A stretch of 29,075 bases of DNA from IMG/VR virus record IMGVR_UViG_2541047746_000007, one strand, 5' to 3'. Position 1 is the first letter of the stretch. Each line of letters begins with the position of its first letter. Made by a program: the position numbers and the translations under genes. The notes beneath the pieces are model-generated. The model saw only the letters and a program-made list of their open reading frames with translations, searched no databases and had not been told where the DNA came from. Below, piece by piece: positions 16,516 to 20,685 of the stretch. The stretch comes from a virus (lineage: Duplodnaviria > Heunggongvirae > Uroviricota > Caudoviricetes).

Positions 16516-16815
16516 AAAAATTCCTTAATACTGATAACTGGGCGCACTATACACACGTTCCTGAAGAAAGCTATAGTTTTTTGATGGGGTTGAAGATGGC
16601 TGGATGTCTAAAATAAACATTGCTTCATATGTTCAACTATGCGTTAATGATTGCGTCGGTTTGAAGAACAGACGATATACGAAGTAGTTTACTAAAGCAG
16701 TTCTCATTTCAGGTGTTATTCACTTATTCCTTCTTTGAGTCTCTCCAATTAAGTACGAAGTCGTTTCTGTTATACAAGCCATTTATGCCGAAAGGCTCAA
16801 GTTAAGGAATGTAGA

Positions 16816-17031
16816 ATGTCAAATAAAATGACTGGTTTAGTAAAATGGTTTAACGCTGATAAAGGTTTTGGCTTTATTTCTCCTGTTGATGGTAGTAAAG
16901 ATGTGTTTGTGCATTTTTCTGCGATTCAGAATGATAATTTTCGAACCTTATTTGAAGGTCAAAAGGTTACCTTCTCTGTAGAGAGTGGTGCTAAAGGTCC
17001 TGCAGCAGCAAATGTCATAATTACTGATTAA
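16816..17031 (+). CDS. cspB: Cold-shock protein, CspB-like
   Basis: 71 aa; [38 protein letters not shown] carries the RNP1/RNP2 motifs of CspA-family proteins. RBS AAGGAA. Confidence 0.8.
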
Positions 17032-17312
17032 AATTCATAGTTTGTCTGTATACGATAACGAAGAAGGCTGATGCCTGAGTGGAGATACAGACAGAGTGGT
17101 GAATATTGGATCTCTTTAATAAATAGTAAGGAGGTCCAATACATGAAACAATGGCCAGCATATTTGGCAATAACTTAATCAGGAAAAGTATGCTAACCAT
17201 TGTGGTGAAGTGCAGGTTTGCTGCATGAATAGTTTTACAGCAGAAGCTAACTGCTGGCATAGCAAAACAAAGTGCGTAAGTGGATGACTCCCACAAAAAG
17301 TACCACAATATT

Positions 17313-17565: not shown

Positions 17566-17783
17566 AGGCTTTTCCTGTATAAATGGCCGTATACAGTACA
17601 CTAAATATGAAAACATATCTCGTATTATTATTTAATATATGATTTTCTTTTAAAATAATTACCCACATTTTTAATGTGTCTGTTTTTTAGCGCCGTTGAG
17701 AACAACGTTTGCTATAAAAACTAACCCATAGACTCCGATCTTTTCAAACATATTGCACCATCTGTGTACATCGGGGTGAGGAT

Positions 17784-17999
17784 ATGAAATCAATGGATAA
17801 GTTAACAACAGGTATCGCCTATGGCACATCGGCTGGTAATGCTGGTTTCTGGGCATTGCAGTTACTCGATAAAGTAACTCCGTCACAGTGGGCTGCAATC
17901 GGTGTGCTGGGTAGTCTGGTTTTTGGCCTGCTGACGTATCTGACAAACCTTTATTTCAAGATTAAAGAAGACAGGCGTAAGGTTGCGAGAAGAGAGTAA
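17784..17999 (+). CDS. Class II holin (EssQ/EssD / phage-21 S-like), dual-start motif
   Basis: 71 aa; [26 protein letters not shown] with two predicted transmembrane segments and a charged C-terminal tail. M1-K-S-M4 dual start as in holin/antiholin pairs. RBS GGGGTGAGGA. Confidence 0.85.
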
Positions 18000-18003
18000 T
18001 CCA

Positions 18004-18555
18004 ATGACACAAGACTATGAACTGGTTGTGAAAGGAGTCCGCAATTTTGAGAATAAAGTGGCGGTAACTGTAGCCTTACGGGACAAAAAACGCTTTGACG
18101 GTGAAATTTTTGACCTGGACATCTCGCTGGACCGTGTTGAAGGTGCCGCGCTGGAGTTTTATGAGGCAGCAGCCAGAATGAGAATCAGACAGGTATTCCT
18201 GGATGTTGCTGCCGGGTTATGTGTAGGGGATGAGCAGTCGCCGGAAAAGCGCCCCATAATTTTAGAGGCGCAGAATGTGTGGATAACCTACAAAGGAAAG
18301 CTACCGGGAAGAATTACTGGTTCTCTGAAGACGCCACCGACGGCATTGCGGTCAGAAAAAGATGATATTGAATCGCCCATTGAAAAACTGGAGGGCAGCG
18401 TCGCTGATCTGAATAAAAAATTGTCGGTGCTGATCCCTTCTGAAGATGAAAAAAAACGCCGCGATGAGCAGTTTGCGGCGTTTTACGATTATTGCATTGA
18501 AGTTACTCGCAGGAATTTTGTGAAGATTTTTGAGGAGGGTAAATCTCTTCAGTAA
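18004..18555 (+). CDS. Hypothetical protein in the lysis cassette
   Basis: ATG at 18004 immediately after the holin stop; 183 aa, acidic and coiled-coil-like. Lies between holin and endolysin, where Qin carries ydfR as I recall. Confidence 0.5.
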   Translation: MTQDYELVVKGVRNFENKVAVTVALRDKKRFDGEIFDLDISLDRVEGAALEFYEAAARMRIRQVFLDVAAGLCVGDEQSPEKRPIILEAQNVWITYKGKLPGRITGSLKTPPTALRSEKDDIESPIEKLEGSVADLNKKLSVLIPSEDEKKRRDEQFAAFYDYCIEVTRRNFVKIFEEGKSLQ

Positions 18556-18763
18556 GCTTAATGGCGGACGCTGCAATTAATTCAGGAAGGTCCGCAAGGT
18601 CATCTGTCAGTGGATATGATGAAAAATCGGCGGCAGTTCTGTTAAGAAGCGCTTTAACTAATTCCTTTTCCTTCTCCGGCAACAAGTTGATTAGAGCTAC
18701 GACTGCTTGCCTGAGTGCGATTAAATCAGCAAAAGTTTGTTTTGGTAGATTTGTGTAATCCAT
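18503..18763 (-). CDS. Hypothetical acidic protein encoded antisense within the lysis cassette
   Basis: 86 aa from the ATG at 18763 with RBS GAGGTG. Helical-looking protein with atypical codon usage (GC3 about 40%). Its 3' end overlaps the upstream plus-strand gene by 53 nt. Confidence 0.35.
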   Translation of the reverse strand: MDYTNLPKQTFADLIALRQAVVALINLLPEKEKELVKALLNRTAADFSSYPLTDDLADLPELIAASAIKLTEEIYPPQKSSQNSCE

Positions 18764-18876
18764 AGTCACCTCTGTGTTTATCAGATTGACATCCTCCTCC
18801 CGCCAGTGCCCATCACTGGTGAGGTAAGATTTAACATATCCGGGGATTTGAAGCCGATAAATCCTGATAAATATCC

Positions 18877-19904
<1,028 letters not shown>

Positions 19905-20267
19905 ATTAATATTAAATCGGATTATTTTTAGCGCTGAATGTGAAATTTAAATAAAAAGGACTCTTCCATGAGTCAAAATCCTTGAAATCTTAAGGGTAAG
20001 ATAAAAGGTCATTAGACAGAATGACACGTTTTATTAATAAATAAAGCTATTGTTTCATTCGTGTGTTTTTCTTTACAAAAGTAATCCTTGCTATGGTTGG
20101 TTAATCATGCGTTAATGGTGTTCTGGTTTGTTACAAAATTATCTGAAGCAGTCATTGTTATAATTTTATTATTTGTACCTCTTGAGATTTCCTTGTTGGT
20201 TTTTCTCTCTGATATTTTTTTTCGGACCATTCTGCCCAAGGGCTAACTTCTTCAAAAGGTAATAATG

Positions 20268-20480
20268 ATGTCTAACAAAATGACTGGTTTAGTGAAATGG
20301 TTTAACCCTGAAAAAGGTTTTGGTTTCATCACGCCGAAAGATGGTAGCAAAGATGTGTTTGTGCATTTCTCAGCTATTCAGAGCAACGATTTCAAAACGT
20401 TAACTGAGAATCAGGAAGTCGAATTTGGTATTGAGAACGGACCTAAAGGCCCTGCAGCTGTTCATGTAGTGGCACTTTGA
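20268..20480 (+). CDS. cspI: Cold-shock protein CspI-like
   Basis: 70 aa; [42 protein letters not shown]...[13 protein letters not shown]. Long AT-rich 5' leader upstream, typical of csp genes. Confidence 0.85.
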
Positions 20481-20685
20481 GGTAGAAAATATTACAAACC
20501 ATATTCACTTTAGATGCCCGTGTTGCCATGGTTCTCAGTATAGAACATCATCTTTTGATGTTTCTGACAGAAATCCTTTCGGGGCAAAATGTATCTTTTG
20601 TAAATCAATGATGATTACATTTGATAATATTTCACAATACTTAAATGTTAGCCATCTGTCGTTAGATTTAAGAAAGTGAAAATGA

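Follow-up and report, generated by a model that had tools for sequence, protein, structure and literature searches.

Gene A and its locus

We analysed 29,075 nucleotides (nt) of DNA from a tailed-phage record (Caudoviricetes; IMG/VR record IMGVR_UViG_2541047746_000007), hereafter the window, and within it a small gene, here called gene A, that is encoded on the minus strand among plus-strand lysis genes. The locus is a lambdoid lysis cassette of the Qin/Shiga toxin (Stx) phage type with the order essQ, ydfR-like gene, A, rrrQ and rzpQ, and prophages of E. coli CFT073, S88, APEC O1 and related strains carry positions 17700-19500 with 100% identity. Sequence comparison indicates that A is very probably a genuine protein-coding gene under moderate constraint. 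It converges tail to tail on the ydfR-like gene, the last part of which we call module B. The principal features are as follows:

18503-18763, minus strand: gene A, coding sequence (CDS) of 86 amino acids (aa), ATG at 18763, TAA at 18505-18503
18773-18767, minus strand: Shine-Dalgarno sequence of gene A (AGAGGTG), with GAGG 5 nt before the ATG
18004-18555, plus strand: ydfR-like CDS of 183 aa, TAA at 18553-18555
18004-18339, plus strand: N-terminal part of the ydfR-like CDS, DUF1327 (YdfR) in Pfam
18340-18555, plus strand: module B, the last ~70 residues of the 183-aa YdfR-like protein, its final 53 nt overlapping A
17784-17999: essQ, holin (RefSeq annotation; holin supported by Pfam)
18877-19410: rrrQ, lysozyme (RefSeq annotation; lysozyme supported by Pfam)
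19407-19904: rzpQ (RefSeq annotation; DUF2514 supported by Pfam)

A preliminary description, made from the letters of the window alone, had drawn attention to an 86-aa minus-strand open reading frame (ORF) with a ribosome-binding site (RBS), opposite in direction to the holin and lysozyme genes and overlapping the preceding plus-strand gene by 53 nt; start, stop, Shine-Dalgarno sequence and the convergent overlap (18503-18555) were all found as described. The ORF listing gives a longer frame from a GTG codon (18503..18769, minus strand, 88 aa), and the ATG at 18763 yields the 86-aa form. Exactly the latter CDS is annotated in CFT073 and S88 by RefSeq, through the NCBI Prokaryotic Genome Annotation Pipeline (PGAP), as WP_001306174.1, 'hypothetical protein'. 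Gene A also matches phrog_2572, a family of unknown function, over its whole length (residues 1-86 on profile positions 1-86 of 86; E=1.2e-53, 180 bits).

The low-GC composition that had been noted is borne out: GC content is 41.4% in gene A and 35.6% at its third codon positions (GC3), compared with 47.0% in the window, 48.8% in the N-terminal part of ydfR and 51.5% in rrrQ. So is the acidic, helical character of the product, with an isoelectric point of 4.57, a net charge of -5.5 and three helices (residues 8-26, 30-48 and 56-74) predicted by two AlphaFold2 models (mean predicted local distance difference test scores of 73 and 71). The predicted three-helix shape is a generic one. Its N-terminus, MDYTNLPKQTFADL, has no hydrophobic signal, and its sole cysteine, residue 85, does not lie in a lipobox.

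Conservation of gene A as a coding sequence

The initial protein search for A returned near-identical E. coli copies only; an exhaustive HMMER search and a profile search recovered divergent homologues (P0020, P0021, P0023, P0025, P0026 and P0043) of 89-93 aa and 38-57% identity, their sources being Salmonella and metagenome-assembled lambdoid prophages. In four of these (P0020, P0021, P0023 and P0025) the similarity extends over the full length. In three clades the A frame is uninterrupted for 86-93 codons, a Shine-Dalgarno sequence (TAAGGA or AGAGG) and the start codon are kept at the same place in the divergent homologues, and the insertions and deletions among them are in frame (2, 4 and 7 codons). 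In these deep comparisons, where the synonymous rate (dS) exceeds 1.1 and is saturated, the ratio of nonsynonymous to synonymous rates (dN/dS) in the A frame is 0.30-0.35. Selection on the A protein is shown by the interclade conservation of the protein at saturated synonymous sites together with the conserved RBS and start. Among close copies (88 sampled loci), polymorphic sites fall in a ratio of 15:7:7 at codon positions 3, 2 and 1. Two proteins recovered by the searches were treated separately: P0019 (975 aa) was set aside as a repeat protein that matches through eight repeated stretches and is not usefully homologous, and P0022 resembles a heavily mutated or corrupted copy of A.

Of 5426 complete E. 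coli genomes, 364 (~7%) contain a match to the segment that carries A (18340-18876). A is encoded in each of the eight phage genome records with a match, 2H10, PhiR63_1 and PhiR12 among them, and the exact A protein occurs on at least 1000 contigs.

Several observations weigh against this reading. Constraint on A is moderate, dN/dS among close variants (at least 90% identical) being 0.3-0.6. The start codon has been lost (ATG to ACG) in nine of the 88 sampled loci, and in one of them Q19 has become a stop. The family is narrow, comprising E. coli, E. albertii, Salmonella and metagenomic contigs, and a scan of GTDB species representatives found a single locus carrying A, in E. coli. Protein A had no match of known function in Pfam (also at E values up to 10), in NCBIfam, in PADLOC or in a sequence-profile search of the PDB, and the best Foldseek match of its models against the PDB and viral structures had E=1.9. 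The start-codon losses, the nonsense mutation, the dN/dS among close variants and the lack of a known domain also speak for a spurious frame, which the preliminary description had allowed; such a frame would be open by chance, either in decaying prophage DNA or in a late-operon spacer that codes for nothing. It is also true that 57 ORFs in the window reach 86 aa. With ORF length so common, the significance of A rests on conservation and not on length. On that ground the spurious reading fails: at ~40% GC a chance frame would be expected to stay open over 86 codons in fewer than one case in 100 for each lineage (an estimate from base composition), whereas A is open in three clades at saturated dS with RBS and start in place, dN/dS near 0.3, in-frame indels, and replacements milder than those in the alternative frame considered below. 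A spurious origin is therefore very improbable. The comparison of conservation and dN/dS across relatives that had been proposed as a check thus showed a reading frame conserved in related prophages.

An alternative that places the true gene on the other strand must be weighed separately:

18561-18758, plus strand: shadow ORF of 65 aa, antisense to A and with third codon positions in common; not a gene

By this account the 65-aa ORF, co-directional with the lysis genes, would be the gene and A its shadow. The two frames share their wobble positions, which makes codon-position and dN/dS statistics nearly equal in both; close variants (at least 90% identity) cannot separate them, and divergent homologues are needed. 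The plus frame even has the lower dN/dS among close variants, and it too is open in the divergent homologues. However, a stop in the shadow phase requires a Tyr, His or Gln codon of the sense gene with a suitable third base before it, so an open shadow frame is expected from composition. The divergent clades offer no ATG near its 5' end, the ATG that it has in the window is TTG in 24 of 88 loci, and no Shine-Dalgarno sequence lies at a usable distance. In the deep comparisons the shadow frame has the higher dN/dS (0.47-0.53), and its identity and BLOSUM scores are below those of A; it has no PHROG or Pfam match. That A is the shadow of this ORF is hence the least probable of all the readings considered here.

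Searches for a function of A yielded further candidates that we reject. AcrIIC4, the top PDB row in Foldseek, had a probability of 0.21 and is not counted as evidence. The DUF1823 (PF08853) label carried by PhiR12 records corresponds to a partial match of 13.2 bits (E=0.11), compared with a gathering threshold of 25 bits, and an ABATE match lies far under the cut-off. PADLOC returned nothing for A, its homologues or the B proteins. A type II toxin-antitoxin or other known defence system is likewise not indicated, as there are no family matches and A and its partner are convergent and not co-directional. A literature search found nothing on protein A and no expression record for its locus, and the only functional lead concerns the neighbouring YdfR domain.

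Altered copies of A were also observed. In E. coli 2013C-3277 (locus L008, 1-1500) an element of the insertion sequence (IS) family IS3 lies inside gene A, aligned to window position ~18571, which explains truncated database proteins such as P0012 that read from A into the IS. A haplotype in E. coli CFSAN029787 (L009) and eight IMG/VR loci combines the loss of the A start (ATG to ACG, 18762) with a 21-nt in-frame deletion in module B (18394-18414), such that A and its converging partner are altered together. In the haplotypes of L038 and L022, found in four of 88 sampled loci, a 2-nt CT insertion exactly at the A stop (18505/18506) lengthens A and puts the plus-strand protein out of frame over its last 17 residues. 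Damage such as the start loss, the nonsense mutation and the IS3 insertion is usual for prophage accessory genes.

The converging partner and module B

The gene overlapped by A had been called a lysis-cassette gene in the preliminary description. The overlap holds, but the partner is a YdfR (DUF1327) fusion and not a canonical lysis gene. PGAP annotates only 18004-18339, as a 'YdfR family protein' pseudogene with a missing C-terminus. The whole ORF of 183 aa is nevertheless intact and agrees with phrog_2091 from end to end, which makes the pseudogene call look like an artefact of comparison with shorter YdfR proteins. In the 183-aa protein DUF1327 is joined in frame to a C-terminal module, which Salmonella prophages also carry as a free-standing 73-aa protein.

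In every context recovered (at least five), A converges on and overlaps a late-operon gene, by 53 nt in the clade of the window and by 59 nt otherwise. The partners in these contexts are:

Salmonella, L093, L097 and L099: free-standing 73-aa gene that starts 8 nt inside the end of an Rz-like DUF2514 gene, with the small terminase gene next in order
L096: 116-aa YdfR C-terminal fusion
L102 and L105: 144-aa protein downstream of the Q antiterminator gene
L103 and L104: 243-aa DUF1327 protein
The window: 183-aa DUF1327 protein

Their N-terminal parts vary, and their C-terminal ~60 residues, corresponding to module B, are related in all; residues 37-71 of the L093 protein are 43% identical to residues 149-183 of the window protein. 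A is thus inherited together with module B, tail to tail over 53-59 nt. Module B itself is true coding sequence: it matches the N-terminus of proteins of 213 and 217 aa elsewhere (57-63% identity), dN/dS within the Salmonella clade is 0.23, and variants of the 73-aa form with as little as 77% identity are all of the same length. Its interclade identity is only 17-32%, much below that of A. In the 213-aa and 217-aa proteins module B occurs without A, and this counts against an interaction between the two. The YdfR-type N-terminal domain of the fusion has been reported to bind RNase E.

Signals flanking gene A

Four features beside A may bear on its expression:

18484-18449, minus strand: terminator-like hairpin, AAAACGCCGC-12 nt-GCGGCGUUUU, with a U8 run, beginning 19 nt past the A stop
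18826-18878, minus strand: conserved block, ATGGATATTTATCAGGATTTATCGG...GGATATGTTAA, about 70-115 nt upstream of the A start, and on the other strand the rrrQ leader
18833-18861, minus strand: candidate A promoter, -35 TTTATC at 18861-18856, 17-nt spacer, -10 TATGTT at 18838-18833
18803-18819, minus strand: 17-nt palindrome CCAGTG-N5-CACTGG, in the presumed 5' untranslated region of A, between A and rrrQ, and also in the upstream leader of rrrQ

The hairpin lies within the coding sequence of the partner (codons KKRRDEQFAAFY). It has a predicted free energy of -14.6 kcal/mol (z=-3.8), and eight base pairs of its stem are kept in three clades, with one compensatory change of G-C to A-U that alters the B codons from RR...AA to RHH...GVA. 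We therefore regard it, with moderate confidence, as an apparent intrinsic terminator on the A strand. Several points tell against this assignment: covariation amounts to a single event, the loop is 12 nt long, the U tract is poor in other clades, and the arms of the hairpin encode conserved module B residues (RR and AA).

The conserved block is nearly invariant across clades. The hexamers of the candidate promoter (TTTATC and TATGTT, the latter TATTGT in Salmonella) and their spacing are kept in three clades, and the spacer sequence varies. The Salmonella and L102 contexts keep the block even though no lysozyme gene adjoins it there, which argues that it serves A. On these grounds TTTATC-17-TATGTT may be the promoter of A. 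Two findings pull the other way: it agrees with the sigma-70 consensus at only 7 of 12 positions and is absent from the consensus-scan list, and in phages H-19B and BP-4795 the same block is a plain spacer (about 50-55 nt) between ydfR and R with the antisense gene absent. Part of its conservation may thus serve rrrQ. The palindrome at 18803-18819 keeps its stem and varies in its loop in related loci, and in either leader it might act as an operator or as an RNA hairpin.

Absence of A in relatives and the antisense slot upstream of R

In the Qin prophage of K-12 the ydfR stop overlaps the rrrQ start, there is no spacer, and the whole A segment is missing. K-12 Qin loses homology to the window at 18209 and regains it at 18867; the segment with B and A is thus an insertion or replacement relative to that reference prophage. 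In other lambdoid and Stx phages, unrelated small antisense ORFs of 79-106 aa occupy the same slot, immediately upstream of the lysozyme gene:

95 aa: phrog_10490
104-106 aa: phrog_1853, including Stx2-86 gp06
79 aa: phage Perceval
90 aa: phage Chlobot, also overlapping a converging ydfR-like gene
Slot ORF loci: L010 2851-3138, minus strand; L011 2596-2916, minus strand; L110 1633-1947, plus strand; L111 1639-1878, plus strand; L112 1301-1573, plus strand

These ORFs adjoin all or part of the conserved leader block. They were considered as distant relatives of A and set aside, as BLASTP and hhalign show no detectable similarity. This slot beside the lysozyme gene may be a hot spot at which antisense accessory genes are exchanged.

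Other features of the window

The spacing of rrrQ differs between the prophages: in the window rrrQ is preceded by a 320-nt untranslated spacer, and in K-12 Qin, where its ATG overlaps the ydfR stop, translational coupling is suggested. No recognisable Shine-Dalgarno sequence lies within 20 nt before the rrrQ ATG at 18877 (…CCTGATAAATATCC ATG).

The RefSeq annotation of CFT073 and S88 gives a local gene order that also includes cspF (minus strand), cspB (plus strand) and ynfU (minus strand). At the gathering score Rfam has no match within 18440-18880, and its four matches in the window lie elsewhere:

16655-17094 and 20110-20526, plus strand: two full-length cspA-type thermoregulator leaders (RF01766)
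7874-8062, plus strand: isrK (55 bits) and C4 antisense RNA (83 bits), side by side

The two leaders lie ahead of cspB and cspI, cold-shock genes of the prophage on either side of the lysis cassette. Small-RNA pairs of the isrK/C4 type are known from P1/P7-type immunity regions and from some prophage regulatory regions. Cold induction has been reported for genes of the ydfR cluster (PMC13232886).

Discussion

The reading towards which we lean is that A is an accessory unit resembling a moron, independently transcribed antisense to Q-dependent late transcription. A would be transcribed alone from the weak TTTATC-17-TATGTT promoter in the rrrQ leader, giving an mRNA of ~375 nt that ends at the hairpin. 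With a promoter of its own, A would be made in the lysogen or in the early phase of infection, when the late operon is silent. In lambdoid phages, polymerase modified by Q for transcription of the late operon is expected to ignore terminators of this kind (Q antitermination). Such polymerase would read through the hairpin and shut A off by transcriptional collision and by formation of a duplex with the A mRNA, leaving A and the B-carrying late protein to be expressed in alternation. The small acidic product would most likely bind another protein, for which the late protein of the B/YdfR type is the most obvious candidate. That A and B interact is pure conjecture, a weak point of the proposal.

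The preliminary description had suggested, as one option, an antisense-encoded regulator of lysis timing. The constant position of A opposite lambdoid late or lysis genes, over the same late-gene module, fits a link to late gene expression, but neither homology nor fold points to a regulatory function. Made specific, the suggestion becomes a hypothesis in which A and B form a two-part control of lysis or late genes: A, made early, would restrain the B-carrying protein or delay lysis, and Q-dependent transcription over A would release the brake. A is strictly co-inherited with B, their overlap is kept in every context, and the pair is always in or next to a lysis cassette (S-ydfR::B-A-R or S-R-Rz-B-A). 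The arrangement is, however, unlike known toxin-antitoxin or holin-antiholin pairs, without PADLOC or Pfam matches, and B is poorly conserved between clades and occurs without A. Moreover, the overlap alone could explain the co-inheritance, because the tail of A and the hairpin lie inside B. We consider this control system unlikely, as we do any specific role of A in lysis timing or in antagonising B.

A third possibility is that the active product is mainly an antisense RNA that pairs with late mRNA and tunes lysozyme or blocks superinfecting relatives, the ORF being secondary. The transcript would be fully complementary to ~375 nt of late mRNA just upstream of rrrQ, several unrelated antisense ORFs in the same slot would fit a transcription-dependent function, and STnc6030 provides a precedent for superinfection exclusion (PMC7067206). 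Against it stand the conservation of A at the protein level and the retention of its RBS and start, which an RNA acting only in cis would not need; nor does the region have an Rfam match. A dual role of RNA and protein is conceivable. The RNA explanation seems to us somewhat more doubtful than two-part control.

The most far-reaching version of the hypothesis would make A and B a mobile convergent 'flip' switch of ~0.5 kb, in which Q-dependent read-through flips expression from A to the B-carrying late protein and A counters that protein, setting the timing or leakiness of late and lysis functions; the site upstream of the lysozyme gene would then be an unrecognised hot spot that exchanges unrelated antisense genes beside a shared promoter block. 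We give this scheme as little credence as the antisense-RNA explanation.

Diagrams of lambdoid and Stx phages usually show the lysis cassette as a one-directional S-R-Rz series, and a subset carries a conserved small gene on the opposite strand. The genomes that match the cassette segment (~7% of complete E. coli) include inducible phages and Stx-producing strains. If expressed from the prophage, A would be a candidate accessory factor of the lysogen or a brake on late or lysis functions, to which the release of toxin is linked in Stx phages. Two annotations are corrected by the analysis: the call of an intact ydfR fusion as a truncated pseudogene by PGAP and the unsupported 'DUF1823' label. 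A was already known as a RefSeq hypothetical protein and a PHROG, and accessory genes antisense to late genes are a familiar class, of which this locus is an uncharacterised member that introduces no new principle. What appears to be new is the evidence that A is truly coding, its tail-to-tail coupling to a late module with an apparent internal terminator, and the variable antisense slot upstream of R.

Comparison with known systems

A shares several properties with morons. It is present in some phages and missing at the same place in close relatives (K-12 Qin, H-19B and BP-4795), it is antisense to late genes with a GC content below that of its neighbours, and it comes with an RBS of its own, a hairpin and U run downstream, and a candidate promoter. 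The bor gene of lambda, a moron adjoining the lysis genes, is transcribed in the direction opposite to the late operon, and the lysogen expresses it. Unlike Bor, which is a lipoprotein with a signal sequence, the A product is acidic and predicted to be cytoplasmic and helical, with neither signal nor lipobox. A further difference from bor is the place of A within the lysis cassette, where it either follows the Rz-like gene or separates the ydfR-like gene from R; A also shares 53-59 nt and a putative terminator with late coding sequence.

An analysis of Salmonella prophage transcriptomes describes accessory (moron) loci of prophages as typically lying antisense to lytic genes (PMC7067206), and one prophage RNA antisense to late genes, STnc6030, excludes superinfecting phage (PMC7067206). 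Like STnc6030 of Salmonella phage BTP1 and OOP of lambda, A is antisense to lytic or late genes and has a 3' end complementary to the converging gene; those two are non-coding RNAs, whereas the A locus encodes a conserved protein. The existing entries for A (phrog_2572 and WP_001306174.1) carry no function or context, and its divergent homologues and its pairing with B come from the present analysis. The closest parallels in placement are the ORFs of phrog_10490, phrog_1853, Perceval and Chlobot, with which A shares slot, orientation and similar size.

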